Both the position numbers and the translations under genes were made by a program. From an uncultured Clostridia bacterium (GTDB lineage: Bacteria; Bacillota; Clostridia; Christensenellales; Borkfalkiaceae): a stretch of 64,000 nt of DNA. Below the pieces are notes generated by a model that was not told where the DNA came from, searched no databases, and saw nothing but the letters and a program-made list of their open reading frames with translations. This document shows, piece by piece, positions 17,440-57,687 of the stretch; the stretch's first letter is position 1, and every line of letters begins with the position of its first letter. The stretch covers positions 1,835 to 65,834 of the forward strand of contig CAKQKI010000008.1 of the NCBI GenBank assembly GCA_934248055.1, written 5' to 3'.

Positions 17440-18327
17440 TTAAATTATTCCGCCTTTTTGCGTTTTTCTGTATTTCAAAGGCGTTACGCCTACGGATTTT
17501 TTAAATGTTTTGGAAAAATAATTCGGCGTGTCGAAATTCAGTTTTTCGGAAATCTCGGATACGCTCATAGACGTGCAGGTTAAAAGTTCTTTTGCTTTTT
17601 CCGTTTTTAAATCGCGATAATATGCCATAACGCTTTTATTGAAAGCAAGCCTGAATTCCTTGAAAACATACGACTTGCTGTAATTCAGTTCCCTGCAAAC
17701 GTCGTCTATCGAAACGCTTTCGTAAAGATTTTTTAAAAGATACTCTTTAATGCTTGCGGCTATTTTCCCTTCGTAATCGCGATCGTTTAAAAACACGGGG
17801 TTTTCTCCGTCTTTTTCGGTTTCGTCACGCATGAGAGTTATAAAAAGACATTCGAGATTGTTTTTTATAAGTTGCATTCCGCCGAGCGTAGGCATAGACA
17901 AAAGTTCGAGTTTTTTGCTTTCCGGCGCAGACGTTTTCACGTCGAAAGTTTTTCTCGCTTCCATAGCGACGCTGTAAAAATATTTTTGAAATTCGCTCCG
18001 CACGAAAATTTTTTTGTTTTCGAAAAAACGCATTGCCGGCGATTTGCATTCGAACGATATGATTATAACTTCCGACGAAGTTTTCCCGTTTGCTTTAAAA
18101 GCATGCTTTTCGCAAGGCTTATGAAAAAGCGCTTCGCCTTCTTTCACGAGTATATCAGATCCTTCCGTAGGAACGAACACGTAATTTTTCCCGACGTATA
18201 ATATCTCCCAGAAATCGTGACTTTCTTCGGGAAAAACAAATTCTTTTGAAAAAGAAAACTCGTGAACCGCAATTATTTTGTTTATCGTTATAAGATTTTC
18301 GATTTTGTGCCTGAAATACTTTTTCAT
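17440..18327 (-). CDS. AraC/XylS family transcriptional regulator
   Basis: 295 aa. N-terminal cupin-like domain and a C-terminal double HTH (...SVSEISEKLNFDTPNYFSKTFKK...). It is divergent from the deacetylase operon. Confidence 0.85.
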   Translation of the reverse strand: MKKYFRHKIENLITINKIIAVHEFSFSKEFVFPEESHDFWEILYVGKNYVFVPTEGSDILVKEGEALFHKPCEKHAFKANGKTSSEVIIISFECKSPAMRFFENKKIFVRSEFQKYFYSVAMEARKTFDVKTSAPESKKLELLSMPTLGGMQLIKNNLECLFITLMRDETEKDGENPVFLNDRDYEGKIAASIKEYLLKNLYESVSIDDVCRELNYSKSYVFKEFRLAFNKSVMAYYRDLKTEKAKELLTCTSMSVSEISEKLNFDTPNYFSKTFKKSVGVTPLKYRKTQKGGII

Positions 18328-18480
18328 ATTAAAATTATAACCCTTGTTTTTGCACTTTGCAAGCGTTTTATAAAATTTTGTGGAGTATTTTACTCTTTTT
18401 AAGTAGTTTAAACCATTGTAAACGCGTCTTTATCGGTATAAAATATTATTAAATCGAAATAAAATCGGCAAGCGGAAAGA

Positions 18481-18506
18481 GTTACCGAAAAATTTTTTAC
18501 GGTAAC
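18481..18506 (+). promoter_or_regulatory. Stem-loop immediately 5' of the deacetylase RBS
   Basis: GTTACCG-AAAAATTTTTTA-CGGTAAC, a 7-bp stem ending 8 nt before the AAGGAG at 18515. Confidence 0.25.
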
Positions 18507-18528
18507 GGCTTGTCAAGGAGAAGCAACA

Positions 18529-19233
18529 ATGAGAATTCTGGCTGTGGGGGCGCATCCCGACGATATAGAAATCGCCTGTTCGGGAACGCTTGCAAAATGC
18601 GTAAAGCGGGGCGACAAAGTTATAGTCTGCCACGCTTCGAGCGGAAATCTCGGGCACGTGGAAATTCCGCCCGAAAAGTTAATTCCCATGCGGGCGGCAG
18701 AAGCGAAAAAAGCGGGCGGACTTGCGGGAATAGAAGTTATATGGGGCGGTTTTAACGATCTCGATATTTTTACAGAAACGAAAGAAGCGCGGGATAAATT
18801 AGTCGAAATTATTCAATACGCCGATCCCGATCTTATCATAACTCACGACCCTTGCGACTATATGCCCGATCATACTGCGGTTTCAAAACTCGTTTTCGAC
18901 GCGAGTTTTACGGCTACCCTTCCTAATTACAAAACAAAAACGGGAAAGGCGGCTAAACTCGTTCCCGTTTATTATATGGACACTCTTGCGGGCGTAAACT
19001 TTAACCCCACCGTTTACGTAAACATAACGAATGAAATCGATCTTAAACTGAAAATGCTTAACTGTCACGAAAGTCAGATCGTGTGGATGCGCGAACACGA
19101 CGGAATAGATTTTACCGATATGGTAAAAACCTGCTCCAAATACCGCGGTTATCAATGCGGCGCGGAATACGCGGAAGGGTTTAAACAATGTCAGGCGTAT
19201 CTGAAAGGAACTACCGAAAGGTTGCTTCCCTGA
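18529..19233 (+). CDS. PIG-L/LmbE family N-acetyl-sugar deacetylase
   Basis: 234 aa with the signature AHPDDIE near the N-terminus and a downstream HxxH-type region. Confidence 0.8.
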   Translation: MRILAVGAHPDDIEIACSGTLAKCVKRGDKVIVCHASSGNLGHVEIPPEKLIPMRAAEAKKAGGLAGIEVIWGGFNDLDIFTETKEARDKLVEIIQYADPDLIITHDPCDYMPDHTAVSKLVFDASFTATLPNYKTKTGKAAKLVPVYYMDTLAGVNFNPTVYVNITNEIDLKLKMLNCHESQIVWMREHDGIDFTDMVKTCSKYRGYQCGAEYAEGFKQCQAYLKGTTERLLP

Positions 19234-19257
19234 AAATAAAAAAGCAAGGAGAATATT

Positions 19258-20202
19258 ATGGATTTTAATTCAACGGTAAAAGGCAGTTTACTTGAAAACT
19301 TCTATCCCGAAGGCTGGGATTTTAAAAAAATAGACGAATGCTGTTCGCACGCGCCCGACGAAGTTTTCGAACGTCAGGAATTCTGGGACAAAAACTTTTC
19401 GCCCGTAAGTTGCGAAAGCGTTGCCGAATTCAACGTTAAAATGGGACACGAAATAGCAAACGAAATAAAAAAAGCCAAAGAAAGGCAGGAAAAAATCGCG
19501 TTTATTCTTCCCGTAGGACCTATGGGAATGTATAAATGGGCGGTTTACTTCCTTAAAGAATGGAACGTAGACTGCAAGCACGTGTGGTGCTTTAATATGG
19601 ACGAATGGGCAAACGGCGACGGCAACACGATAACGGGCGAAGCGTCGTTCCGAAGCGCAATGGAAAACGCGTTTTATAACCCGCTCGGAAATCTCACCGT
19701 ACCCGAAGACCACAGAAATTTCGCGACGAAAAACAACCTTGCGTCTTATCCCGAAAAAATCGCCGCGCTTAAAAAAGACGGCGCAAAACTCGTACTCGTT
19801 TACGGTATAGGAAGAATGTGCCATATCGCCTTTTTCGAGCCGCATTTCGGTTCGGAGTACGTCAGCGACGCGGAATGGCTGAAAGTCCCTTACAGAATCG
19901 GCGCAAAACTTCACCCGCTTACGATCGAGCAAAACGCCATTACTTCTTTCCGTTCGAGAACGAGTCTCGTTCCGTGCAGAGCAAACACGATAGGACCCGC
20001 GATAATGTTTTCGGCAGACTACGCTATCGGCGGCGCCGACGGCGCGCTTTCGCGCGGAATGCAATGGCAGGGAATGAGTTTCTGGATGACTTTGAGATAT
20101 AAGCCTACGAGATTCGTTACTTCGTCGTATATCCCCACACTCCCCGGAAAACTTTTCTTTCTTAAAGAACTTGCAGGACCTTTATGCCCGGACGTCAACT
20201 GA
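19258..20202 (+). CDS. NagB/RpiA/SugarP-isomerase superfamily protein (glucosamine-6-P deaminase-like, divergent)
   Basis: 314 aa. ILPVGPMGMY, FNMDEW and GIGRMCHIAFFEP parallel the NagB motifs ILATGSTP, FNMDEY and GIGxxGHIAFNEP. Confidence 0.65.
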   Translation: MDFNSTVKGSLLENFYPEGWDFKKIDECCSHAPDEVFERQEFWDKNFSPVSCESVAEFNVKMGHEIANEIKKAKERQEKIAFILPVGPMGMYKWAVYFLKEWNVDCKHVWCFNMDEWANGDGNTITGEASFRSAMENAFYNPLGNLTVPEDHRNFATKNNLASYPEKIAALKKDGAKLVLVYGIGRMCHIAFFEPHFGSEYVSDAEWLKVPYRIGAKLHPLTIEQNAITSFRSRTSLVPCRANTIGPAIMFSADYAIGGADGALSRGMQWQGMSFWMTLRYKPTRFVTSSYIPTLPGKLFFLKELAGPLCPDVN

Positions 20203-21143
20203 GCGGTATCGCCGTGGCGGGAACGGTGCTTTCGGATAAATTAAACCGTATAAGAAAGTACCCGTCTGCGGGAGAACTGAGTAAAATTTACGCGGAAGAA
20301 AAGTCCGTGGGCGGTCTTGTTCCGAACGTTGCGATAGATTTAAAGCGGATAGATTTTTCTTTGAACGTTTACGCGATAGGAAGAACGGGAAACGACGACG
20401 ACGGCGCGTTCATACGCGAAAAACTTGAAAACGAAGGGGTTTTAACGGAATTTTTGAGCAAAAACGACGGGATTACGAGTCACACTTTCGTTATGAGCGA
20501 TGACGACGGAAAACGAACGTTTTTTACTTACGGCGGCGAAAACGACGAATTCGGTTACGCCGATATTCCCTTTGAGAATTTAAACGTGAAAATGCTGCAC
20601 TTGGGATATTTCGCGCTTTTGCCGAAAACCGACGGCGGCGACGGCGTTAAAATTCTGAAAGAAGCGAAAAGGCGCGGAATAAAAACGTCGATAGATCTCG
20701 TTTCGGACAGCGAAAAAGGCTATTCCGGCGTTAAAGACTGTTTGAAATACGTAGACAATCTCATTATAAACGAAACGGAAGCGGCGGGGCTTACGGGGCT
20801 TGACGAAAACGATTTTAAAGGACTGTGCTACGCGCTTAAAAATCTCGGCGTTTGTGAAAGAGTAATCGTTCACTCGGCAAAAAAGGCGGCTTTTCTCGGT
20901 AATAATTCATACTTCGAGCAAAATTCGCTCACTTTGCCGAAAGGATATTTAAAGGGTTCTACCGGCGCGGGAGACGCGTTCACGGCAGGCGCGATTTACG
21001 CCGTGTTCAAAAATTTCAAAAACGAAGACGTTCTCGATTTTGCCATACGCGCCGCAGCGGTAAGTCTATCCGAATTATCCGCTACCGACGGCATGAAAAG
21101 CGCGGACGAAATTTATCGCGCAACCGAAAAATTCAAGGGGTAA
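20184..21143 (+). CDS. PfkB-family carbohydrate kinase
   Basis: 319 aa. The C-terminal GAGDAF ATP/anion-hole motif is typical of the ribokinase/PfkB family. The 5' end overlaps the previous gene by 19 nt. Confidence 0.8.
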   Translation: MPGRQLSGIAVAGTVLSDKLNRIRKYPSAGELSKIYAEEKSVGGLVPNVAIDLKRIDFSLNVYAIGRTGNDDDGAFIREKLENEGVLTEFLSKNDGITSHTFVMSDDDGKRTFFTYGGENDEFGYADIPFENLNVKMLHLGYFALLPKTDGGDGVKILKEAKRRGIKTSIDLVSDSEKGYSGVKDCLKYVDNLIINETEAAGLTGLDENDFKGLCYALKNLGVCERVIVHSAKKAAFLGNNSYFEQNSLTLPKGYLKGSTGAGDAFTAGAIYAVFKNFKNEDVLDFAIRAAAVSLSELSATDGMKSADEIYRATEKFKG

Positions 21144-21145
21144 TT

Positions 21146-21982
21146 ATGCTTGTTAATTTAAACGAAGTGCTTAAAAAAGCGCAAAATGAAAAATACGCGG
21201 TAGGGCTTTTCAACACTACCGACACCGATATGCTCGAAGCGGTTATCGGCGCGGCGGAAGAGTTGAATTCCCCCGTTATAATCGGCACGGCGGAAGTTCT
21301 TTTGCCGTACGGCGAACTTAAACTTATCGCCCCCGCTCTCGTTTCGGCGGCTAAAAACGCAAAAGTACCGGTAGTTGTTCATTACGACCACGGTCTTACT
21401 TTCGACAGATGCATGGAAGCGCTGCGGCTCGGATTTTCGTCCGTTATGTTCGACGGCTCTACAACGCCTTACGCGGATAATATACGCGCCACACGCGAAA
21501 TAGTGAAAATTTCGCACGCTTTCGGTGCGACCGTAGAAGGTGAAATAGGCCACGTGGGCGAAGCCGCAAGCGAAGACAATCTTTTAACGGATATGTATAC
21601 AACTCCCGAAGAAGCGGTTAAATACGTCGACGATACGGGCGTTGACGCGCTTGCCGTTGCCATAGGCTCCGCACACGGAGTGTATAAGAAAAAACCTATG
21701 CTCAATATCGACAGGCTTAAAAAAATCCGCTCCGCGCTCGACACTCCGCTCGTTCTTCACGGCGGCAGCGGACTAAGTGACGACGATTTTAAAAACACCG
21801 TGCGAGAAGGAATAGCAAAGGTAAACATTTTTACGGATCTTTGCCTTGCGGGCGAAAAATCGATAAAAGAAAGCGTTCTTCTTAATAACGGCTATCTGAA
21901 AATGCGAAACGAAAAAGTTTCGGCAATGAAAGAAGCCGTTAAGATGAAAATAAAACTTTTCGGAAGCGAAAACAAAGCGTAG
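21146..21982 (+). CDS. Class II (metal-dependent) ketose-bisphosphate aldolase (FBA/tagatose-1,6-bisP aldolase family)
   Basis: 278 aa. HYDHG, GEIGHVG and LVLHGGSG motifs. Confidence 0.85.
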   Translation: MLVNLNEVLKKAQNEKYAVGLFNTTDTDMLEAVIGAAEELNSPVIIGTAEVLLPYGELKLIAPALVSAAKNAKVPVVVHYDHGLTFDRCMEALRLGFSSVMFDGSTTPYADNIRATREIVKISHAFGATVEGEIGHVGEAASEDNLLTDMYTTPEEAVKYVDDTGVDALAVAIGSAHGVYKKKPMLNIDRLKKIRSALDTPLVLHGGSGLSDDDFKNTVREGIAKVNIFTDLCLAGEKSIKESVLLNNGYLKMRNEKVSAMKEAVKMKIKLFGSENKA

Positions 21983-22020
21983 CGGGGTTTAAAAAACGGC
22001 TTAAAAAAGCAATCCCGCAA

Positions 22021-22053
22021 AAAGACTGTCGGATAAAAACGCAGTCTTTTTTT
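22021..22053 (+). terminator. Putative terminator of the aldolase operon
   Basis: AAAGACTG...CAGTCTTTTTTTAT, a short stem with a T-tract. Confidence 0.45.
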
Positions 22054-22082
22054 ATGTCCGGCAATAATTACCGATATTAAAA

Positions 22083-23282: not shown

Positions 23283-24404
23283 TTAAATCCCGTTATTGAA
23301 AAATACGGTATACGGCGCTAATTTATCGCCCGTCGTAAAGCCTTTCTTTTTTCCCGCGTTCCGCACGTAAAATACCGCTCTGTCATTAAAAACTTCGAAC
23401 ACGAGATATTGCGCGAACAGCGGCGTTCCCGTATGCGGGTAATACTGCTTTTCTTTTAAACCGCCGTAACCCGTTAACCCGTCTTTATCGAAATTTTCAA
23501 CGTCGAACGGGCGCAGTCCGCCCATATGAACGAAAGTATAGCAATACTTTTTTCCGCGCGAATCGTTTTGCCCGAAATTATTGTTTAACGGATTATCGTT
23601 TTTATCGAAATGCAAAACCGCGCAAGACGAATTATCTTTGTATTCCACACGTTCGCCGTGAACGTGACCGTACAGATAAAACGCGTTTTTATGTCCTTTG
23701 AACATATCGTAAAACTTTTTAACGTTTCCGTTAACCATCGTTTCAACGAGTTCTTCGCCGTAATAATAGCACTTTGCAGATAAATGCCCTATAATAAACA
23801 CGGGCTTTATTCCGTCGGGATCGATTTCGTTCAATTTATTTTTTACCCAGTCAAGCGTTTCGTCGGTATAATAACCTTCGTGAGTATTGAAAGCCGTGTC
23901 GGGATCGATATTTATTCCTATAAAATCGACGCCGTTAACGACGTAATGAAACGCGTTTAAATATCTTTCTTCTATCTTATGAACAGACTTCGCTTTTAAT
24001 TTTTCCTTTGGCGGAAGTTCGCCGAACGATTTATCCATATAATCGTAAAAATCGGTCGTGTTATACGGCTCGTTTTCAGCCGTTCCTATATCGCCCAGAA
24101 TAAAATCGTTGTTTCCCGCAACGTATAAAACTTTTCCGCTTTTAGTCGTGCTTTCGGCAACGGTGTTGAGTTTTTGCTTTAAATCCAAAAAATTTTTTTT
24201 GGGCAAAGCGCAGGATTTATCCCATTCGGGATAGTCCGAAACGTTATCGCCGCCGATAATCGCAAGGTCCGCCTTTCCGAATTCTTTTACGGCGTTTTCC
24301 GCCGCAGTCAGATACGATTTTCTTAACGTTACGGGATAATCGAGCATTGCCTGCTGATTATGAATATCCGTAAAACAAAATGCCGTTAATACAGGTTTTT
24401 CCAT
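23283..24404 (-). CDS. Calcineurin-like metallophosphoesterase
   Basis: 373 aa. Motifs DIHN, GDNVSD, GNND and GHVHG. Confidence 0.7.
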   Translation of the reverse strand: MEKPVLTAFCFTDIHNQQAMLDYPVTLRKSYLTAAENAVKEFGKADLAIIGGDNVSDYPEWDKSCALPKKNFLDLKQKLNTVAESTTKSGKVLYVAGNNDFILGDIGTAENEPYNTTDFYDYMDKSFGELPPKEKLKAKSVHKIEERYLNAFHYVVNGVDFIGINIDPDTAFNTHEGYYTDETLDWVKNKLNEIDPDGIKPVFIIGHLSAKCYYYGEELVETMVNGNVKKFYDMFKGHKNAFYLYGHVHGERVEYKDNSSCAVLHFDKNDNPLNNNFGQNDSRGKKYCYTFVHMGGLRPFDVENFDKDGLTGYGGLKEKQYYPHTGTPLFAQYLVFEVFNDRAVFYVRNAGKKKGFTTGDKLAPYTVFFNNGI

Positions 24405-24430
24405 AATTAAAACTCCCTTGCGCTTAAAAC

Positions 24431-25066
24431 TTATTTTCTTAATTCTTCGTAAGAAGTTTCGAATTTTTCAACAAACGGCTTATACACTTTAAAATCTCTG
24501 AAAAAAATCTTGCTCGCATACACGCCGAGCCCTACTCTGCCGTATTTGCTTATCGGTTTTTTATCCAGCATTTCAACCACGAGTTCGCCGTCTACGAATA
24601 AAAATAAATTATTACCCGCCCGTCCGGTCTGAATATGATGTTCCGTCGAAGCGTCGAAATCTTTGATTTTCGTAAGAGCCTGCACTTTGTTTTTGAGCGG
24701 ATATTTTTCAATGCCGCACTTTCCTATCCACCAGCCTTGCAGTCCGCCTACGTACCCGGGCTTAGGAAGACCTTTTTTATAATTCCACCCGTCCGCGCAG
24801 AAAGTAAAGTTCAGATCGTTATCGTAAGGGGGAATGATTTTGCCGTAAAAATCAAGCAGAACGTCGCCTTTATAATGCTTATAGGAATAAATAAGACCGC
24901 CGCCGTCTTCTTCCATATAACCCGTAACGCCGCCGTTTTCGGCAATCCACTTACCGCCCGCAATCTCAAAATCTTTTTCAAGATTGCCGCCTGAAAAATC
25001 CGTCCGATACAGCAATTCGGATTTTTCAACCGTAATATCTTTTTCTTTTATTCTGAGTATCTGCAT
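24431..25066 (-). CDS. Hypothetical protein, possibly concanavalin-like (YesU/DUF1961-like)
   Basis: 211 aa. It resembles YesU-type jelly-roll proteins only by my recollection and is not verified. Confidence 0.35.
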   Translation of the reverse strand: MQILRIKEKDITVEKSELLYRTDFSGGNLEKDFEIAGGKWIAENGGVTGYMEEDGGGLIYSYKHYKGDVLLDFYGKIIPPYDNDLNFTFCADGWNYKKGLPKPGYVGGLQGWWIGKCGIEKYPLKNKVQALTKIKDFDASTEHHIQTGRAGNNLFLFVDGELVVEMLDKKPISKYGRVGLGVYASKIFFRDFKVYKPFVEKFETSYEELRK

Positions 25067-25087
25067 ATTTTAACAGTTTTCCTTTAT

Positions 25088-25121
25088 AAATCTTATTGCG
25101 CCGTAAATCTTATTGCGCCGT
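25088..25121. repeat. Perfect 17-bp tandem duplication (AAATCTTATTGCGCCGT x2)
   Basis: Read directly: unit 1 is 25088-25104 and unit 2 is 25105-25121. Confidence 0.95.
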
Positions 25122-25607
25122 CCAGACCCGACATAAACCAGCCGATATCCGACCTTACCGGACAGCGATTCGCCCGCTTTGTGACGAACGGACCGTTCCC
25201 GCATATTGATATTCCAAAACATTATACCCCAACTTCACGATATAGTCAATAAAAAACCTTCAACTCTCTTATTTTAAATTATACATACCGTATTATACAT
25301 ACTGTCAGCGGTATAAAGCAATACGCCCGTTTTACCGAGCCGATTTTTACTTTTTATAATTTTTAATTCCCGCGCGGCAATAATTCTTTGTCCCCCTGCT
25401 TAAACCGCCGCCCGATAGAATTTAAGGCGCTTGCCGCGGCTATTTATTCATAACGGTTATTTCCTTATTAAATATATCATTTATAAGAATCCGTTTCTAC
25501 CCGAAAACCTTATAAAATTTGCCTGATTTTTGATTTTTTAATTTTTTTATCGAAAGTATTGAAAAATTTTTTAAAATATATTAAAATGAATTTAAGGAGA
25601 AAAACTG

Positions 25608-26441
25608 ATGATTTATAACGACAGTTATATTTTAAAAACGGGTCATAGTTTTCTTGCGCCTATCTACGATCCGCCCCTTGCAACTCATAATCATACTTTT
25701 TTTGAGTTTTCTTTTATCAGACGGGGACATTGCGTAAACGTAATCAACGGCATAAGGTATCCCGTATCGCGCGGAATCTGCGCTTTACTACGCCCTTCCG
25801 ATTGCCATTTTTTTGACGACACGATGCCCGTAAATCCGAAAAAATACGAGCATATCGACGTGTACGTTTTTAAAGACGATTTTAAAAACTGTTGCGATGC
25901 AATCGATTTGAAATTGTATAACGATATAATAAATTCCGAATCTCCCGTCGTATTCAATCTTTCAAATCCCTTTCTCGAATCGCTCGATAATAAAATAGAC
26001 TACCTTATAAATAATCAGTCCGGCGAACTTGCGAAGATATTTCATAAAATCATTATCGTTTCGTTATTAGGGGCGTATCTTGAAGAAAAAGGACTTAACA
26101 ACCATAATTATCCGAAGTGGCTGAACGATTTGCTTGCAGACCTTAACACGATTGACGCGATAAGTTCGAATATTTCTGCTCTTGCCAAAAAATACGGCTA
26201 TTGCCCCGAACATTTAAGCCGCGAATTCAAAAAATTTACCGGTGAAAAACTTATAGATTACATAACCCGACAGAGAATAAAATATTCTTTGCCTTTAATA
26301 ACGGAAAACCATATGAGAATTATCGATATCGCGCAGATTCTCGGCTATCAGAAGCAAAGTTCTTTTTCGGCGAATTTCAAATCTATTATGAATTGCACGC
26401 CGAAACAGTTTCAACTGCTGCATGCCGCCGGGCAAAAATAA
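25608..26441 (+). CDS. AraC/XylS family transcriptional regulator
   Basis: 277 aa. C-terminal double HTH (ISALAKKYGYCPEHLSREFKK..., IIDIAQILGYQKQSSFSANFK). Confidence 0.8.
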   Translation: MIYNDSYILKTGHSFLAPIYDPPLATHNHTFFEFSFIRRGHCVNVINGIRYPVSRGICALLRPSDCHFFDDTMPVNPKKYEHIDVYVFKDDFKNCCDAIDLKLYNDIINSESPVVFNLSNPFLESLDNKIDYLINNQSGELAKIFHKIIIVSLLGAYLEEKGLNNHNYPKWLNDLLADLNTIDAISSNISALAKKYGYCPEHLSREFKKFTGEKLIDYITRQRIKYSLPLITENHMRIIDIAQILGYQKQSSFSANFKSIMNCTPKQFQLLHAAGQK

Positions 26442-26719
26442 TCCGAGCCGCGTTTAACTGCTGTGTTTTTTTAGTACTTCTAATCAGGAAGTTAACTACT
26501 AAAACCGATGAAAAACGAAGATAAAATCATGCGCGATAAAAATCAACGATCAGAAAATTTTTAACTTTTAATTAAATCAGCAAATAAAACGAACCTTCAA
26601 TATCGTAAAGATCGCTCGGTCTCAATGAATTTACCGATTATAAGGGTAATAACGTTTTAAGATAAAGAATGCAATTGCTTGTGTTCTGCATTTTAGATTA
26701 TACAGGGAAAAGTAATGAT

Positions 26720-29700
26720 ATGAAAAAGATGTTATGTAATTTTTGTCAGGAAACTTTAGAGTTTGAAAATCATAAATATACATGCCCGATTTGCGACAAA
26801 GAATGGAATGAAATTATCCTTAGCGATAAAAATTATTTCGATTCGGACTGCGTGTCTTATATCAATCCGATATTGACGTCAGAGTACCAAAGTTTTTATT
26901 CGTTATTGCAAAACAAACAAGTTTACGGGATTATTTTGCAAATTAAAGATATTTACGAAATCATCATCAGAATTCCCGTATTGCTGGTATGTTCTTTCAT
27001 TTTAAACGCCAAACACACGCTTAAAGGAAAGGAATTGCTTGTTTATATGATGTCTAAACCGCTGTCTTTAGGCGATTGGCGATACCTTATTTCGCTTGCT
27101 TCGGAAGTGGTAGACGAAATGGAAGAAACCGTTCCGATTGAGATCAAATCGTTGGTTAACATAGTAAAAAAATTCGTCTTTTCCGATAAAAACGGAGATA
27201 TCGTGTATTGGAGAAACAGCACCATTTCTCACGGAGCGACAAGGCAGTTAAACGATGCGGATTTATACGATGACGCCGCGACTAAATTAGAAGAAATTAC
27301 AGGTTTTTTTAAAAACAACGCTTCATTATTTCACAGTATTTCGTTCATTGACGAAAACGGCGTTGAATTGGACGAAAACAACAGCAAAATCTGCAAAAGA
27401 GGAAGGGTGTTTTTAAAAATCAACGATAAAAAATATTCTCTTTACCCTTTTTTCACCATAAAAGACGAGGGGATTTTTTTGTTCGACAGATATGTAAAAA
27501 AAATTAAAAAGACGGATATTATCGATTACGTAAAAAGCGTAAAAACCTCCGTCGAGTTTGAAGAATTAAATAATTTAAGTTTAGAAAATTCCATAAGTTT
27601 ATTTAATGCGGACAACAGTATAGACACATATACAATCGAAGAACGCGACCTTTGCGAAGAGATTGCCAACGGTAACGAATTTTTGTCACCCGATTACTTA
27701 ATCGAAGCGTTAAAAGAAGAATTAAAAAACAAAAAAAGCGTTTTTTCCATACAAATGGAAAAAGGAATGGGGAAAAGTTATTTCGTAAAAGGACTCGACG
27801 CGTTCTCATTGAATAATATTTTTATTGACGAACTTACCGTTAAAGCGTTTTATATTAATTCGACGTACAATTCCAGAGTAAACGATTTCTGTATTTGCGT
27901 CGAAGATTTAATGAGAAAAAAAACAAGCGGTTTTACGATTGCTAATTCGGTTATTCGTCTCAACATCAATTCGGCTGACCCGAGCAAGGCTTTTGCGGAT
28001 TTTTTAAACGAATACAAAAGAAAGTATTATTACGATAAAAAATTACTTTTTATTTTTGACGGAATAGACGAATTAAAAATTCAAACGGGCAAAAACATTA
28101 CCGATTTTATTCCCGATTACGATGATTTGGACGACGGAATTTATATTCTTTTGACTTTAAGAACCGATTCAAAAAACGATGAAATATCGCCGTTTGTTCG
28201 CGAATATATTTCTGATTTCAAAGGGAAAAAATATTGCTATACAAAATCAAGCGAAGAATATCTTTCGTTCGCAAAGAATTATTTTGATTTGTTTTTTGTT
28301 AAAAAAGTACTGTTGTTTTGCAAAAAAAATAAACTGAACAATAATATCAACGTGGCGAAAATGAGCGAAAAATTCTACGAAATCGAAGACAAGTCGATGT
28401 TGAATTTAAGCTTGATTCGCGAATTGACTCTTTTAAATTTAAACGACTGCATTAAAAAAGGAAACGATTATTTCAATGCCGACGAGTTGTCTTTCGGCAG
28501 CGATATGTACGTTTCTTATTTCAGCAGTATAAAAGAGTATTACGGTTCAAAATATTATGAGAAATTCGTCAACGTTTTGTGCCGTCTGGCAATTGCCGAC
28601 AGGGGGCTTTCCCTTGAAGAGTTGTCTGTTTTATCGGGAAACAACAATCTGAATTTTGCCTTTCTCGGCTTTATAAATTCCATGAAAATGTTTCTTGATA
28701 CAATCAGAGACAATAAGGGAACGTTGTTTACTATAGGCCACATAGATAGAAAGAGTATCATTTATTCGATTTTCAAACAAGAAATCGATAGTTTAAAAAA
28801 CGAGATTATTTTAAGAATAGAAAACGTTTCAAGTGACGCTTTTGCTTACGGAAACGTTGAAGACAACGTGTTTTATTGCTGTATTAACTCAATTCTCAAC
28901 GACTTAAACCCCGCAATTCCCGACGATTGCGCCGTTGCGTTCGATTTGTTTAAAAGCATGCTTAAATTGCCTTTGGATTTCGATTGGGGCGCGTTTCGTT
29001 CGACTATTATTTCCGAACTGATTGTTTTAAATAATATAACGGGGTTCGAGAAGTTTTCGTTCGACTTGAACGAAGAGCAAAAATACGATTATTTCATGAT
29101 TTTATCGAAAATCGCTTTTAATGAAATGATTTTAAAAAATACCTGTATAAGCGAGCAGTTTTTTGAAAAAGCAATTGCCTTCTATAAAGACGAAAGCGCA
29201 GACGAAAACAAGCAAAACGGTTATGCGGAAACGCTGTCTTTTTACGCTACTTTATTGTGGGATTTGGGAGAAAATGACAAGGCATATAACATTTATAAAG
29301 AAGTTGTAAAGTCCAAAAAGAATATAAATTTAACCGATAAACAATTAGTTTCTGACGTAGACCTTTTGTCGGAATACGTATGCCTGTCTAATATTGCCAA
29401 TTCGGCGCGTTTTTACGACGAGCAATTCAACAATTTAAAGTTCGTCGAACAAGGTTTGCCTTTATGTTGCGATTGCGAGAAAAAAGAGAGAACTCTCCCG
29501 TTTATGAGCGCGTGTTTTTTTAGTTATTACAGAGATATAAACGACGTAAAAAATGCGATATATTATATTAAAAACGCCATTTCGGAATATGATATATGCT
29601 GCCATAACCCCGAATCGAGAATGTATATTCCGGATTTGGTCAAGTGTATGTACAAATATATCGATTACATCAATTTAAACGATGCCGTTACGTGTGATTT

Positions 29701-29935
29701 CGACAAAGAAGAGAACTATTTTAATTCCTTAATCGATTATATTTCTCAAAATAAAGACTACGACGATCCTTTTTCATTTATGGAATACTTGTTTAGCCTT
29801 TACAGATTATACAAAACGAGAAATGATGAAAAAGCCAAGTATTATAAGGAAAAAATAATAAATTATTATTTACATTTAGATGACGCGTATAAAGAAAACG
29901 AACGTCTGGCAAAAATTATCGAAAAAGTTAATTAA
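26720..29935 (+). CDS. STAND-class P-loop NTPase (NACHT-like) with N-terminal zinc ribbon and HEPN-like motif and C-terminal TPR-like repeats
   Basis: Contents: Zn ribbon CNFC...CPIC; WRNSTISHG (Rx5H); Walker A GMGKS at 27764-27778; NACHT-style Walker B LLFIFDGIDE at 28043-28072; helical repeats in the last ~350 aa. I prefer the start at 26720 (MKKMLCNFC) over the ORF-track start at 26669. The gene is AT-rich. Confidence 0.65.
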   Translation: MKKMLCNFCQETLEFENHKYTCPICDKEWNEIILSDKNYFDSDCVSYINPILTSEYQSFYSLLQNKQVYGIILQIKDIYEIIIRIPVLLVCSFILNAKHTLKGKELLVYMMSKPLSLGDWRYLISLASEVVDEMEETVPIEIKSLVNIVKKFVFSDKNGDIVYWRNSTISHGATRQLNDADLYDDAATKLEEITGFFKNNASLFHSISFIDENGVELDENNSKICKRGRVFLKINDKKYSLYPFFTIKDEGIFLFDRYVKKIKKTDIIDYVKSVKTSVEFEELNNLSLENSISLFNADNSIDTYTIEERDLCEEIANGNEFLSPDYLIEALKEELKNKKSVFSIQMEKGMGKSYFVKGLDAFSLNNIFIDELTVKAFYINSTYNSRVNDFCICVEDLMRKKTSGFTIANSVIRLNINSADPSKAFADFLNEYKRKYYYDKKLLFIFDGIDELKIQTGKNITDFIPDYDDLDDGIYILLTLRTDSKNDEISPFVREYISDFKGKKYCYTKSSEEYLSFAKNYFDLFFVKKVLLFCKKNKLNNNINVAKMSEKFYEIEDKSMLNLSLIRELTLLNLNDCIKKGNDYFNADELSFGSDMYVSYFSSIKEYYGSKYYEKFVNVLCRLAIADRGLSLEELSVLSGNNNLNFAFLGFINSMKMFLDTIRDNKGTLFTIGHIDRKSIIYSIFKQEIDSLKNEIILRIENVSSDAFAYGNVEDNVFYCCINSILNDLNPAIPDDCAVAFDLFKSMLKLPLDFDWGAFRSTIISELIVLNNITGFEKFSFDLNEEQKYDYFMILSKIAFNEMILKNTCISEQFFEKAIAFYKDESADENKQNGYAETLSFYATLLWDLGENDKAYNIYKEVVKSKKNINLTDKQLVSDVDLLSEYVCLSNIANSARFYDEQFNNLKFVEQGLPLCCDCEKKERTLPFMSACFFSYYRDINDVKNAIYYIKNAISEYDICCHNPESRMYIPDLVKCMYKYIDYINLNDAVTCDFDKEENYFNSLIDYISQNKDYDDPFSFMEYLFSLYRLYKTRNDEKAKYYKEKIINYYLHLDDAYKENERLAKIIEKVN

Positions 29936-29949
29936 ACGGAGCGATAACT

Positions 29950-30987
29950 ATGAATAATATACAAGAATTTAAAAACGCCAAATACGGATTGATGATTCAT
30001 TTCGGCTTATATAGTTTGCTGGGAGGCGTGTATAAAGGACAACGCGGTCCTGCATACGCAGAATGGATTGAATGTAACAAGCGTATACCTAATGCCGAAA
30101 TCGACAAATTAGCGAGTGTTTTCAATCCTATTTATTTCGACGCCGACTATATTTGTCGCTTCGCAAAAGAATGCGGCATGAATTATATCGTCATCACGAC
30201 AAAACACCACGAAGGCTTTGCCTTGTTTAAATCGAATGCAGATAACTTTAATAGTTTCGACGGTACACCATGCAAAAGAGATTTAATAAAAGAATTGTCG
30301 GTTGCTTGCGAAAGATATGATTTAAAACTTGGTTTTTACTATTCTCAATGCATCGATTGGAGAGAGCCTGACGGCGGAGGATATACCGTAGACCCTAAAT
30401 ACTCCGCAGGCGCGTCATGGGATAACGATTGGGATTTTCCCGACAAAGAAAAAAAGAATTACGAGGCGTGTTTCAATAAAAAAATCTTACCTCAAGTCAA
30501 AGAAATTATGTCCGCTTACGGAAAGATATTTTTGGCCTGGTTTGATATGCCCCTTGATTCAACTTATCGACAAAGTGAAATATTATACAATACGGTAAAA
30601 GAATTGCAACCCGACTGTTTAATCAATTCCAGATTAGGAAACGGCAAATTCGATTACGTTTCTTTGGGGGATAACGAAATTCCCGATTTTATCCCTGACG
30701 CTATTTCGGCAAGCGTAGACGACAACGATATATGGGGATTTAAAAAATCTCCTTACGGACTTTACGAATCGGCATGCACTTTGAATAATTCGTGGGGATA
30801 TAGTTCTGTCGACGATGATTGGAAAACACCCGAAACCGTTTTAAATAACAGGATAAAGTTGGAAAGATTAGGCATAAATTACCTGATAAACGTAGGGCTG
30901 GATTGGTTGGGAAGAATACCCTTTAAAGCCGAAAACATATTGAGAGAGGTTCAAAAATTATATGAAGAAACGCAAACAAATAAATAA
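29950..30987 (+). CDS. GH29-family alpha-L-fucosidase-like protein (catalytic domain only)
   Basis: 345 aa. KYGLMIHFGLYS and TTKHHEGFALF match the GH29 N-terminal motifs. Confidence 0.75.
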   Translation: MNNIQEFKNAKYGLMIHFGLYSLLGGVYKGQRGPAYAEWIECNKRIPNAEIDKLASVFNPIYFDADYICRFAKECGMNYIVITTKHHEGFALFKSNADNFNSFDGTPCKRDLIKELSVACERYDLKLGFYYSQCIDWREPDGGGYTVDPKYSAGASWDNDWDFPDKEKKNYEACFNKKILPQVKEIMSAYGKIFLAWFDMPLDSTYRQSEILYNTVKELQPDCLINSRLGNGKFDYVSLGDNEIPDFIPDAISASVDDNDIWGFKKSPYGLYESACTLNNSWGYSSVDDDWKTPETVLNNRIKLERLGINYLINVGLDWLGRIPFKAENILREVQKLYEETQTNK

Positions 30988-32422
30988 AATGTTGTTTTAT
31001 TTCATTACAGACGACAACATTGAAAAACATCTTTCGACAAAAAGCGTTATAAACAGAAAAAACGAAGTCGTTTGTATTTGGAAAAACGACAAAGACGTAT
31101 CTAACGAACTTATATTTGAAGTAAAACATCTTATGGACAAAGACGAAAATATACATATCATGTCGTCTTTTGTACTCGATAAAAACTTTTACGGAGAATA
31201 CGGACTGAATTTTAATCAATCGGTTCTATTGCCGAAAAACAATTTGGAAGAAATAGGCTTTTCATTGAATAACGTAAGAATACATTGTTTCCGGTCTAAT
31301 ATTAATTTCATTGAATTAGACTACGTTGTCAATTCCGACGACCCGAAAGTTATCAATAACTTTAATTATTTTATGTCCGAAGTAAAGTCGAACGTCGTTT
31401 TAAAGTTAAGTTATAAAAAACTCAACGAAAACAATGAAGTTTACGTCGAAACAAAAGAGTTGACGGTTCTTGATTTTATATTGTCTTTAATCAAAGATTT
31501 CGGAACGCTGAACGATATGGACTTTAAAGGCGAGTTGTCATATAAATCGTTAAAACCGTTGCTGGTGTCATATTTGTTCACCGAAAACAGCACCGACGTA
31601 AATGAATTTGAAAGTAATTTAGGGCATAACTATAAAGAATCGTACAATTTAAACGAAAACCATTTGCGAAAGACTAAATATTTCAATAATTCCACGTGGT
31701 ATTATACCGTTGATTCTATTTCAAATATTACTTATTCCACCGACAATGCTTTGACAAATACCTTTTTTAGCGAAACGTTTACGGACAAGGTAAATAAACT
31801 GTATTTTCCCTTGGTCTTGTTGGCTGCGCATCAGAAATTGTATTGTTTGTACGTTTATCATAAACTTTTTGAAATAAATATCGATTTTACCACCGCGGAA
31901 GAATTAAAAAACAAATGCGACGAATTTACCGCAATAAAGGCTAATTTCGACAAAATGAGTTTGTATTACTTTTTTGACAATCCGTCTTTCATCGAACACG
32001 TAAACGTTTTCTATTCAAACGTGGTCGAGGCTTTCGGCGTAGAAACGTATAAAAAAGCGGTTTATTCAAAAACGAACACATTGATAGAGTTTTCAAATCA
32101 ATGCTCAAAATTATTGGCTAATTATAAAGAGAAAAAAGAATCTAAAAGAAAAATTATTTATGACATTTTTGCTATAATCACCGCATCTGTTTTTTCGTTT
32201 GCTTCATTGTACGATACGTTTTTAAAATTCTTAAAAAACATCAACGTTTCGTTTGGTTTTACCGACAACATTTTAATCTTTTCGGGATTTGCAGTCGTTT
32301 GCCTTATTATTCCTTTTATTTACAATCTCGCTAACAACATGAAAAAACTAAAAAAATCGAAGGCAGAGATCGCCGAAACCGAAAAAAAGATAAAAGACAT
32401 AGGTGTAAAAATAGACATGTAA
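30962..32422 (+). CDS. Hypothetical protein with two C-terminal TM helices
   Basis: 486 aa, very AT-rich, with no family I recognise. TM1 is IIYDIFAIITASVFSFASLY and TM2 is ILIFSGFAVVCLIIPFIYNL, followed by a Lys-rich coiled tail. An alternative start at 30989 would remove the 26-nt overlap with the GH29 gene. Confidence 0.55.
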   Translation: MKKRKQINKMLFYFITDDNIEKHLSTKSVINRKNEVVCIWKNDKDVSNELIFEVKHLMDKDENIHIMSSFVLDKNFYGEYGLNFNQSVLLPKNNLEEIGFSLNNVRIHCFRSNINFIELDYVVNSDDPKVINNFNYFMSEVKSNVVLKLSYKKLNENNEVYVETKELTVLDFILSLIKDFGTLNDMDFKGELSYKSLKPLLVSYLFTENSTDVNEFESNLGHNYKESYNLNENHLRKTKYFNNSTWYYTVDSISNITYSTDNALTNTFFSETFTDKVNKLYFPLVLLAAHQKLYCLYVYHKLFEINIDFTTAEELKNKCDEFTAIKANFDKMSLYYFFDNPSFIEHVNVFYSNVVEAFGVETYKKAVYSKTNTLIEFSNQCSKLLANYKEKKESKRKIIYDIFAIITASVFSFASLYDTFLKFLKNINVSFGFTDNILIFSGFAVVCLIIPFIYNLANNMKKLKKSKAEIAETEKKIKDIGVKIDM

Positions 32423-32544
32423 GCAATTAAAAAAATAGATTTTTTAATATTTTTTCAATAATTTCGTCTTTTATCAGATTGCTCCTTTTTATAAAAAGTC
32501 TAATTTGATTTCGCCGCATTCGGCAATGAAAGAGTATAAAGAAT

Positions 32545-32582
32545 AAACAAAAAACGAACCCCATCGGAACGAAAGGGTTCGT
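32545..32582 (-). terminator. Terminator downstream of tRNA-Leu
   Basis: Stem ACGAACCC (32554-32561) / GGGTTCGT (32575-32582). On the minus strand it is followed by TTTTTGTT. Confidence 0.6.
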
Positions 32583-32594
32583 TTTATTCTTGTT

Positions 32595-32680
32595 TGGTGC
32601 CGAAGGTGGGACTTGAACCCACACATGGTCGCCCATAACGGATTTTGAGTCCGTCGCGTCTGCCATTCCACCACTCCGGC
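32595..32680 (-). tRNA. tRNA-Leu (anticodon CAA), CCA encoded
   Basis: I folded the reverse complement by hand. Acceptor GCCGGAG/CTTCGGC; anticodon arm ACGGA-CTCAAAA-TCCGT; long variable arm (ATGG-GCGA-CCAT); T arm GTGGG-TTCAAGT-CCCAC; discriminator A plus CCA. Total 86 nt. Confidence 0.92.
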
Positions 32681-32800
32681 AAAAACAGTTGATTTTTAAA
32701 GCGGATTATGCAATACTATATATAATACGTTTAAAAGCAGTAATATAATAACACAGCGACGAAAAAAACGCAAACGTTTTTAAGCGTATACAAGGAAAAT

Positions 32801-57425: not shown

Positions 57426-57513
57426 TAAAGATTTTTCCCATTATAATTAAAAAAAATTCCCACATAACGGTTTTGCGGGCGATACACATTTTTTCGTTTT
57501 AAGCCCAATTCGA

Positions 57514-57654
57514 TAAAAATAAACCGCGACAAAAAAAAGCCGCGACAAAAAAAACCGCGGTGACAAAATTAACCACGGCGGTAAAAATAAACTGCGCGAC
57601 AAAAAAAGCCGCGGTAAAAACCGCGCGACAAAAATAAGCCGCGCAACAAAAAAA
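57514..57654. repeat. Array of eight degenerate 14-18-bp units (A5-8 tract plus CCGCG/GCGCG core)
   Basis: Units read directly: AAAAATAAACCGCGAC, AAAAAAAAGCCGCGAC, AAAAAAAACCGCGGTGAC, AAAATTAACCACGGCGGT, AAAAATAAACTGCGCGAC, AAAAAAAGCCGCGGT, AAAAACCGCGCGAC, AAAAATAAGCCGCGCAAC. Confidence 0.85.
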
Positions 57655-57687
57655 CGCCCCGAAAGCCATTATCCTGCTTTCAGGGCG
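57648..57687 (-). terminator. Rho-independent terminator of the 530-aa gene
   Basis: On the minus strand: CGCCCTGAAAGC-AGGATAATG-GCTTTCGGGGCG followed by TTTTTTT. Confidence 0.7.

Follow-up and report, generated by a model that had tools for sequence, protein, structure and literature searches.

What is encoded by the AT-rich segment that lies beside a tRNA-Leu(CAA) gene in an uncultured Clostridia bacterium (Borkfalkiaceae; assembly GCA_934248055.1, contig CAKQKI010000008.1), and can this segment be regarded as a mobile unit of its own? We analyzed a stretch of 64,000 nucleotides of this contig, hereafter the window, in which an earlier examination made without database searches (the sequence-only reading) had singled out positions 25608-32594 as the most likely place for an undescribed system. 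Three genes of the segment, encoding a STAND NTPase, a GH29 alpha-L-fucosidase, and a CorA-like membrane protein, very likely form a conserved, mobile unit, and the STAND NTPase gene, tightly coupled to the gene for the CorA-like protein with two transmembrane (TM) helices, appears from the loci compared to be its invariant core. We favor, with some reserve, the view that this cassette is a conflict or defense system of the abortive-infection type, directed against phages or mobile elements.

A three-gene cassette and its genomic contexts

The island comprises four co-oriented open reading frames (ORFs), encoding an AraC-family regulator, the STAND NTPase, the GH29 fucosidase, and the CorA-like protein (Table 1). 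When the window was compared by blastn with a contig from the metagenome-assembled genome (MAG) that represents another species in GTDB (L025), similarity was confined to the last three genes, and the flanks of that contig (positions 1-158 and 5907-13383) matched nothing anywhere in the 64-kb window, which defines the transferable unit as exactly three genes. The AraC gene is excluded from it because the similarity begins only at 26708; judged by this comparison, it lies inside the AT-rich zone and outside the conserved cassette. It is also absent upstream of the cassette in the other loci examined, and an exact-protein look-up found the AraC protein solely in the window's own context. The sequence-only reading, which had presented 25608-32594 as an island, is not supported in these boundaries, and it was right in describing three co-oriented, tightly spaced genes: the STAND gene (stop 29935) and the GH29 gene (start 29950) are separated by a 14-nt gap, and the GH29 gene (stop 30987) overlaps the CorA-like gene (start 30962) by 26 nt. 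Given the N-termini of homologs, the STAND protein more likely starts at 26720 (MKKMLCNFC...) than at the mechanical ORF start at 26669. The upstream start of the CorA-like gene (30962) is supported by the conservation of the N-terminal extension, which homologs keep even where the second, internal methionine is replaced by valine or isoleucine.

Table 1. Positions of the cassette, its predicted domains, and adjacent features in the window
Feature	Position	Strand	Basis
Shared three-gene cassette	26708..32456	+	blastn; only stretch aligning with L025, 89.4% nucleotide identity; 5.75 kb
STAND NTPase (predicted)	26720..29935	+	1071 aa from 26720; AlphaFold2 pLDDT 83; Foldseek
N-terminal zinc ribbon (C23, C26, C39, C42)	26735..26794	+	Cysteines invariant or nearly so
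R182-N-S-T-I-S-H188 (Rx5H, HEPN-like motif)	27212..27232	+	Within helical domain, aa 46-223
P-loop core: Walker A G366-M-G-K-S370, Walker B L459-LFIFDGIDE468	27764..28072	+	Invariant columns
C-terminal TPR-like helical repeat, putative sensor, aa 726-1088	28844..29932	+	AlphaFold2, all-helical; Foldseek, TPR proteins
AlfC-type GH29 alpha-L-fucosidase (predicted), 345 aa, single domain	29950..30987	+	Pfam PF01120 3e-56; PDB 6o18
CorA-like membrane protein, 486 aa	30962..32422	+	AlphaFold2: cytoplasmic alpha/beta domain, long stalk helix, C-terminal two-TM hairpin
Two predicted TM helices, ~aa 398-416 and 429-458	32153..32335	+	Hydropathy windows
AraC/XylS-family regulator	25608..26441	+	Pfam HTH_18 5e-16, HTH_AraC 8e-11
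AT-rich segment	25250..32594		Composition profiles; left edge approximate, G+C falls at 25.25-25.4 kb
Hairpin with flanking A and T runs	32553..32595		RNA fold -20.4 kcal/mol, z = -3.9; sequence read directly
tRNA-Leu(CAA)	32595..32680	-	ARAGORN; Rfam tRNA 54.6 bits; 3' end towards the island

In every intact locus examined (the window, L001-L015, L025, L028-L034, L047, and L048), a homolog of the two-TM protein (460-570 aa) abuts or overlaps the STAND gene. The fucosidase gene lies between the two in the window, L001-L006, L013-L015, L025, and L028, and the same arrangement is seen in L026, whose contig stops ~70 codons into the two-TM gene. The pair occurs without it in both orders, with the two-TM gene first in L007-L011, L029-L032, L047, and L048, and with the STAND gene first in L012, L033, and L034. 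Pairwise identities of the STAND and CorA-like proteins co-vary (Pearson 0.84, Spearman 0.48, 91 pairs), and the two genes are probably co-encoded by translational coupling.

The surroundings of the cassette differ from locus to locus. It is located between a radical-SAM gene and YefM/YoeB in L001-L003 and among tRNAs, an integrase and type I restriction-modification (R-M) S subunits (both in L005), and a P-type ATPase in L004-L006. In L013-L015 it is flanked by terminase and portal genes of a prophage and, at its other end, by genes for WYL, a DNA methylase, and McrB-like proteins; in the remaining loci it is found among housekeeping genes. Among 107 flanking ORFs pooled from ten further loci, most belonged to housekeeping families, and a type II R-M pair, PDC-S01, and a few other PADLOC matches were also found. 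In 8 of 8 loci with GH29-type cassettes, the cassette has a lower G+C content than its flanks (0.28-0.34 vs. 0.32-0.48), and distant two-gene versions have the same G+C content as their hosts. STAND homologs fall into 30 clusters, all unnamed or annotated as hypothetical, and their sources are gut, rumen, and rabbit metagenomes as well as MAGs of Clostridia or Christensenellaceae; one variant alone (P0013) was found in 243 blocks of the assembly collection. A phage- or plasmid-borne element is not supported, as neither IMG/VR viral contigs, searched with the STAND and CorA-like profiles, nor PLSDB plasmids (tblastn) contained relatives.

A decayed cassette was also encountered (L027, 14248-14310), in which only ~19 codons of the CorA-like gene remain before unrelated GC-rich DNA begins, with the STAND and GH29 genes still intact. 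The MAG from which it comes (Lapin-012 bin2) carries a second STAND and CorA-like pair, which lacks GH29 (L034).

The STAND NTPase

The first protein of the cassette, numbered here by its 1088-aa ORF (start 26669), is predicted to be a STAND NTPase. Its AlphaFold2 model, built from 23 sequences with a mean predicted local distance difference test (pLDDT) score of 83, is composed of a zinc ribbon, a helical domain (46-223), a small beta domain (224-295), an alpha/beta NTPase domain (~355-525), a helical/winged-helix region, and a helical-repeat array (730-1088). In Foldseek searches of PDB, the model matched a STAND-TPR protein (6mfv, 9e-9), terminase-bound Avs3 (8dgc, 5e-6), and Apaf-1 (6e-5), and further AVAST5, CED-4, ZAR1, and the TPR proteins LGN, Rap, and KLC. 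Across 23 aligned homologs, residues G366, M367, G368, K369, and S370 and residues D464, G465, D467, and E468 are invariant; Walker A is present in 30/30 database homologs and Walker B, which is of the NACHT-style hhhhDGxDE type, in all but one. These matches and motifs bear out the assignment to STAND proteins that had been made by eye. The protein has no Pfam family at E <= 0.01 and no NCBIfam, PADLOC, or PHROG match, and some homologs carry faint PF24883 NPHP3_N matches together with TPR families. No PADLOC model of Avs or bNACHT proteins matched the window protein at E <= 1, nor did any match two homologs at E <= 0.01. The TPR array is the most variable part, with a mean pairwise identity of 0.31 vs. 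0.50-0.53 for the N-terminal and NTPase parts, as expected for an immune sensor that undergoes diversification.

The N-terminal module combines the zinc ribbon, for which weak Pfam matches were obtained in 7/11 members, with a helical domain rich in invariant polar residues, including W181-R-N-x-x-I-x-H188-G-A. The RNxxIxHG motif is retained in all 36 sequences compared (30/30 database homologs and 6 further loci), down to 23% identity. R-N-x4-H, in a domain that is all-alpha in the AlphaFold2 model (aa 46-223), agrees with the Rx4-6H motif by which the HEPN superfamily is defined (Anantharaman et al., 2013, PMC3710099), and Pfam HEPN_AbiU2 covers the motif in 2/11 members (E 0.007 and 0.026, below the gathering score). 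Searched against PDB as a profile, the module returned only a spurious designed coiled coil and zinc ribbons. Similarly to HEPN RNases (AbiU2, Csm6, Cas13, and the KEN domain of RNase L/Ire1), the N-terminal domain of the STAND protein is all-helical with an invariant R-N-x4-H, and activation by induced dimerization, as in these enzymes, would suit STAND oligomerization; unlike them, it shows Rx5H spacing followed by an invariant glycine and Pfam matches that stay below threshold and are limited to 2/11 members. We consider it about equally probable that the module is HEPN-like and that it is of another kind, and an RNase module of the HEPN-like type is a plausible reading of the motif.

A distant homolog was found in a cultured species, Clostridium tepidiprofundi DSM 19306 (L048, 4538-9546), which may thus offer an experimental entry point. 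In this protein, a SAM domain replaces the zinc ribbon, and both the RNxxIGHG module and an upstream CorA-like partner are kept.

The CorA-like membrane protein

The last gene of the cassette encodes a protein whose AlphaFold2 model (pLDDT 81, predicted TM-score 0.76) rests on 9 sequences, because a word-indexed database profile search gave only 8 proteins. A stalk helix of ~65 residues runs into the first TM helix, followed by the second, which is the CorA layout; helices 351-417 and 424-474 (477-aa numbering) match the TM hairpin, and two C-terminal TM helices are conserved in all partner proteins of STAND homologs. Among the top 34 PDB hits of the model in Foldseek, 32 were Thermotoga maritima CorA (ranks 1-32 and 34, 35).

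An exhaustive profile search expanded the family to 448 representative clusters at E <= 1e-3. PADLOC holds four CorA-like models derived from CRISPR-associated genes (PDLC01043, 01174, 01175, and 01178), and PDLC01043 was matched by 73 of 92 family representatives retrieved with the profile of the window protein (best 2.8e-25). Among the partners encoded next to STAND genes, 3-4 of 13 aligned proteins matched these models, and so did that of C. tepidiprofundi (1.5e-19). On the strength of these family-level matches, the window protein is best described as a predicted divergent branch of the CRISPR-associated CorA-like family. It belongs to no Pfam family, and PF01544 was not matched; likewise, a Pfam scan of 10 diverse family members detected no meaningful domain, and SLATT and other known two-TM effector families were rejected on this basis. 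The view that two genes of the cassette had no recognizable family has to be qualified: the middle gene encodes a GH29 enzyme, and the family of the two-TM protein matches CorA-like models.

Fold class and topology are shared with the CorA Mg2+ channel (PF01544; T. maritima), from which the cassette protein differs in having no Pfam CorA match, in a larger and different cytoplasmic domain, and in the absence of GMN after the first TM helix. The GMN motif is missing in 13/13 aligned members, and the loop of the window protein at this position reads LYDTFLKFLKN. Within the cytoplasmic domain, polar residues are invariant (e.g., N135, Y136, E140, K225, Y228, N243, S244, and W246), which is compatible with a ligand or partner site. 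A homotypic adaptor domain common to the N-terminus of the STAND protein and the N-domain of the CorA-like protein was also considered and rejected (hhalign probability 0.15%).

A distant CorA-like member (522 aa, PADLOC CorA-like 7e-11) ends a different operon in two further loci (L049, 1-7569, and L050). Upstream of it are encoded an AdoMet-decarboxylase-like protein (PF02675), a ParA-like P-loop protein with a weak PDC-M28B match, and two large proteins without a family. This operon may represent another CorA-based system, and its enzyme related to S-adenosylmethionine (SAM) is suggestive in view of the SAM-AMP signaling known from CRISPR CorA.

The GH29 fucosidase

The middle gene encodes a predicted AlfC-type GH29 alpha-L-fucosidase with an intact predicted active site. 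The protein aligns with Lacticaseibacillus (L.) casei AlfC (PDB 6o18) at E 4e-134 and 56% identity over 339 residues free of gaps, and the nucleophile Asp (WFD) and acid/base Glu (GLYES), equivalent to D200 and E274 of AlfC, are kept in the window and in all 8 cassette copies. Both proteins are single-domain GH29 enzymes of 345 aa with a conserved catalytic pair, and no signal peptide was found in the window protein or is present in AlfC. They differ in gene neighborhood: AlfC is a cytoplasmic catabolic enzyme encoded with the AlfH permease in the alf-2 operon (PMC6960285), and the cassette enzyme is encoded between the STAND and CorA-like genes. No transporter gene (alfH-like permease), fucose or N-acetylglucosamine (GlcNAc) catabolic gene, or gene for another carbohydrate-active enzyme adjoins the cassette in any context examined.

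GH29 is restricted to one AT-rich clade, in which the STAND protein is at least 44% identical to that of the window; one member of this clade, at 45% STAND identity (L007/L032), lacks it. Where present, it occupies a constant position, with overlapping or abutting ORFs. The enzyme is about as likely to have a functional role in the system as to have none. It could be carried as a passenger, serve as a modulator or off-switch in the manner of NrN, or act as an effector on fucosylated envelope precursors; its description as a clade-specific accessory part is speculative.

Relation to known systems

No known defense system accounts for the cassette: PADLOC, the application of which had been suggested together with the sequence-only reading, gave no match at E <= 1 for the four island proteins, and PHROGs gave none for the three cassette proteins. 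In the literature searched, which was covered incompletely and in which absence is no proof of novelty, neither a fucosidase nor a CorA-like protein was found tied to a STAND defense system, and no such link was found in a 2026 survey of ~90 Avs families, in the Aravind-laboratory survey of NTP-dependent conflict systems, or in DefensePredictor. Together with the occurrence of the three-gene unit in unrelated contexts, this agrees, within the same limit on the literature, with the earlier suggestion of an undescribed system.

The closest architectural counterparts of the STAND protein are the Avs/AVAST and bNACHT proteins, which share its tripartite layout, with an effector-like module at the N-terminus, a STAND P-loop NTPase, and a TPR-type repeat sensor at the C-terminus. 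Structural similarity of the window protein to Avs3 and AVAST5, a variable sensor domain, and a patchy, mobile distribution are further points in common. In contrast to these proteins, the window protein matches no PADLOC Avs or bNACHT model, is paired obligately with a separate CorA-like protein, and in one clade is accompanied by GH29. Its N-terminal module (zinc ribbon, helical domain with RNx4H, and beta domain) has no counterpart among the Avs effectors described in the libraries searched.

The membrane partner resembles the CorA effector of type III CRISPR systems, a membrane protein whose cytoplasmic domain mediates gating by SAM-AMP (Chi et al., 2023, PMC10600005). With 73 of the 92 representatives matching PADLOC, the two are predicted to belong to the same broad family, and in both a large cytoplasmic domain is joined by a stalk helix to a pair of C-terminal TM helices. 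CRISPR CorA is nearly always paired with a signal-degrading enzyme, namely NrN, DEDD, or SAM-AMP lyase (PMC10600005, PMC11229360); NrN is required for immunity (PMC10600005), and CorA clades may differ in their activators (Hoikkala et al., 2024, PMC11229360). In the cassette, too, the effector gene adjoins a gene for a hydrolytic enzyme, in one clade: no NrN, DEDD, or SAM-lyase gene is adjacent to it, and GH29 holds this position. The systems differ in that the sensor encoded upstream is a STAND NTPase and not Cas10, the hydrolase is a glycosidase and not a phosphodiesterase or lyase, and the window CorA-like protein falls below the PADLOC CorA thresholds; moreover, gating by SAM-AMP is known from the CRISPR effector, and any small-molecule signal in the cassette would be hypothetical. 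Cas Pfam families, including cas10, were absent among the called neighbors in the loci examined, and the window contains no CRISPR-like array.

As predicted from these comparisons, the cassette would constitute a new sensor-effector combination, joining an Avs/bNACHT-type STAND sensor, a CRISPR-type CorA effector, and an unprecedented glycosidase component. STAND/NLR-like sensors and CorA-type effectors are each known in prokaryotic immunity, and their joint working is undescribed in the libraries searched. If the pairing is functional, CorA-like effectors would be a general, exchangeable module beyond type III CRISPR. According to the literature, no structure of the cytoplasmic domain of CRISPR CorA effectors is available, and the cassette would give a second, simpler system in which to study their gating. 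Nothing comparable to an intact AlfC-type fucosidase stably placed between sensor and effector has been described, which raises the question of a glycosidase as regulator or effector of an immune system. Since uncultured Clostridia of the gut and rumen commonly carry the cassette, it may affect phage-host dynamics in the microbiome.

Proposed function and alternative explanations

In Avs, bNACHT, and NLR proteins, ligand binding by the repeat domain leads to NTP-dependent oligomerization, which brings the N-terminal modules together, and HEPN RNases typically need dimerization to form their active site, a requirement that fits the STAND mode of oligomerization. By analogy, in a defense system the variable TPR array of the STAND protein would bind a protein derived from the invader. 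NTP-dependent oligomerization would then gather the N-terminal modules, i.e., the zinc ribbon and the helical domain with R-N-x4-H, which might form RNase sites of the HEPN type, contact the CorA-like protein at its cytoplasmic domain, or do both. The CorA-like partner would open or disrupt the membrane and the cell would be arrested, so that HEPN-like RNA cleavage, membrane permeabilization, or both would result in abortive infection.

Several observations weigh against this interpretation. None of the cassette components has a direct PADLOC or PHROG match. The HEPN assignment consists of the motif plus two sub-threshold Pfam matches. The Foldseek matches to CorA are weak (E 0.017-0.33, template-modeling scores 0.13-0.30), and the window CorA-like protein itself matches no PADLOC CorA-like model at E <= 1, so that the link to CRISPR effectors is transitive, through family members. 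Flanking genes are mostly of the housekeeping kind, with defense genes as neighbors in some loci only. The fucosidase, catalytically intact and sharing 56% identity with an enzyme of known catabolic function, is without precedent in immune systems and could point to a carbohydrate-related function instead. Finally, no empty site was found, as every site-spanning contig with an identical polA, 211-aa, or AraC protein bears the island, and recent gain at this locus is thus not demonstrated; a metagenome scan with the polA N-terminus retrieved only relatives at <=45% identity, too distant to inform on an empty site.

The alternative that survives best, although we regard it as unlikely, retains the conflict system and reduces it to two genes, STAND and CorA-like, between which a metabolic gene would have been captured once and kept as a non-contributing passenger. 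Versions of two genes are found in both orders and are presumably functional without GH29, and the enzyme evolves as an ordinary constrained protein: copies in the cassette are 62-98% identical to each other, vs. identities that fall to 45% for STAND and 33% for CorA-like proteins. However, GH29 has been kept in the middle of the operon with its active site intact in at least seven distinct genomic contexts, despite the divergence of the STAND protein to 45%, and the decayed cassette lost the CorA-like gene and not the fucosidase. Small mobile cassettes, as we infer, seldom retain neutral cargo in such a position.

Somewhat less probable still is a module for glycan sensing or utilization. STAND proteins such as MalT regulate sugar regulons. 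In such a module, the AlfC-type enzyme would degrade fucosyl-GlcNAc that derives from host N-glycans and is imported, the STAND protein would serve as a MalT-like, ligand-sensing regulator or as a scaffold, the two-TM protein would be a sensor or channel in the membrane, and transcription would be regulated by the AraC protein. The cassette is hosted by Clostridia of the gut and rumen, an AraC gene lies directly upstream in the window, and GH29 has 56% identity to AlfC, with catalytic Asp and Glu in all copies, AlfC itself being catabolic and encoded in the alf-2 operon (PMC6960285). Nevertheless, neither Pfam nor the AlphaFold2 model revealed a DNA-binding domain in the STAND protein, the cassette is not accompanied by a permease, fucose-catabolic gene, or other carbohydrate-active enzyme in any context, and the AraC gene is not conserved with it. 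Many family members lack GH29 and keep the STAND and CorA-like pair, the relatives of the membrane partner are CRISPR-associated effectors, and the cassette moves as an AT-rich unit, sometimes beside R-M, toxin-antitoxin, or prophage genes.

Within the defense interpretation, a more specific and rather improbable variant envisages CRISPR-independent CorA signaling, in which the STAND protein, after being triggered, would use its conserved N-terminal module to make or release a small glycosidic, fucose-like ligand that gates the CorA-like protein. GH29 would then be the counterpart of NrN or SAM-AMP lyase, that is, a hydrolase serving as an off-switch or preventing desensitization. If this were true, a glycoside hydrolase would for the first time be shown to function within a prokaryotic immune system, and the ligand would point to a new chemical class of immune second messenger.

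Composition, borders, and integration site

The composition of the segment sets it apart from the rest of the window. The 1-kb windows within 25.2-32.6 kb have a G+C content of 0.314-0.385 (mean 0.341, n=13), compared with a mean of 0.446 (standard deviation 0.027, n=110) in the remaining 64-kb window; taken as a whole, 25250-32594 has 0.340 vs. 0.446 elsewhere. The sliding-window profile thus confirms the sharp shift described from single lines of sequence, with all 13 inner windows at or below 0.385. G+C at third codon positions (GC3) is only modestly lower in island genes (0.39-0.42) than in flanking genes (0.43-0.54), so that part of the dip reflects the amino-acid composition of Lys/Asn/Ile-rich proteins. 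That the whole dip has this origin and that the genes are native and lineage-specific, with no horizontal island, is very improbable: GC3 just slightly below that of neighboring genes, the presence of the segment in all site-spanning contigs of the species, and the absence of both an integrase and an att repeat would fit it, but the same three genes occur at 89% nucleotide identity between unrelated flanks in another species (L025), and distant copies occur in at least six further contexts, each more AT-rich than its flanks.

The tRNA-Leu(CAA) gene is 172 nt from the stop codon of the last cassette gene (32422), in agreement with the distance of about 170 bp given earlier. No integrase or transposase was found among the ORFs of the window or the Pfam matches of the island, and a search of 24400-32800 found no direct repeat of the tRNA 3' end, as the sequence-only reading had also noted. 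Because integrase and att repeat are both absent, tRNA-targeted integration is not supported; of the proposal that the tRNA gene served as an integration hotspot, there remains the presence of atypical DNA beside its 3' end. Comparison with relatives had likewise been recommended, and it showed the cassette in a different context in L025 and no empty site. Overall, the notion of a foreign, undescribed system has held up, and tRNA-targeted integration and the proposed boundaries have not.

Four GH29-type loci have tRNA genes at 0.3-2.2 kb from the cassette. In three loci other than the window they are upstream of the STAND gene (L004, 6905-7073; L026, 7765-7841; L027, 9598-9683), and that of L027 is also tRNA-Leu(CAA), although it flanks the cassette at the other end than in the window.

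The hairpin at 32553-32595 separates the cassette from the tRNA gene and lies outside the shared cassette; it probably belongs to the host tRNA locus and acts as its bidirectional terminator. Rfam searches of the intergenic regions for regulatory RNA at E <= 1 detected the tRNA alone. The sole repeat that brackets the island is a 17-nt AT-rich imperfect pair with starts at 25532 and 32438, which may be due to chance. Its two copies, GATTTTTTAAT(T/A)TTTTT at 25532-25548 and 32438-32454, enclose the AraC gene and the cassette, and the right copy coincides with the end of the L025 similarity at 32456.

Assemblies tend to break at both edges of the island, as seen from four short metagenome contigs (L017-L020) that end 10-136 nt upstream of the 211-aa gene (~25076-25202) and from another (L024) that starts inside the tRNA-Leu gene (window 32646). 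Such breaks are compatible with presence/absence heterogeneity among strains.

Other observations in the window

Just left of the fall in G+C content is a perfect 17-nt tandem duplication, TAAATCTTATTGCGCCG, in two copies (25087-25121). Next to it, on the minus strand, are genes for 373-aa and 211-aa proteins (23283-25066), which have no Pfam family and accompany the backbone in all strains seen. A strain-level indel was found further to the left: metagenome contig L017, 99% identical to the window, joins 22062 directly to 17479 and is thus without a 4.6-kb sugar-catabolism cluster (17480-22061) that encodes FBP aldolase, PfkB kinase, a 314-aa protein, PIG-L deacetylase, and a second AraC protein. 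Far from the cassette, positions 57511-57662 contain a degenerate tandem array with a unit of 16-18 nt (~CGACAAAAAAAAGCCG) in 5-9 copies with 63-70% matches.

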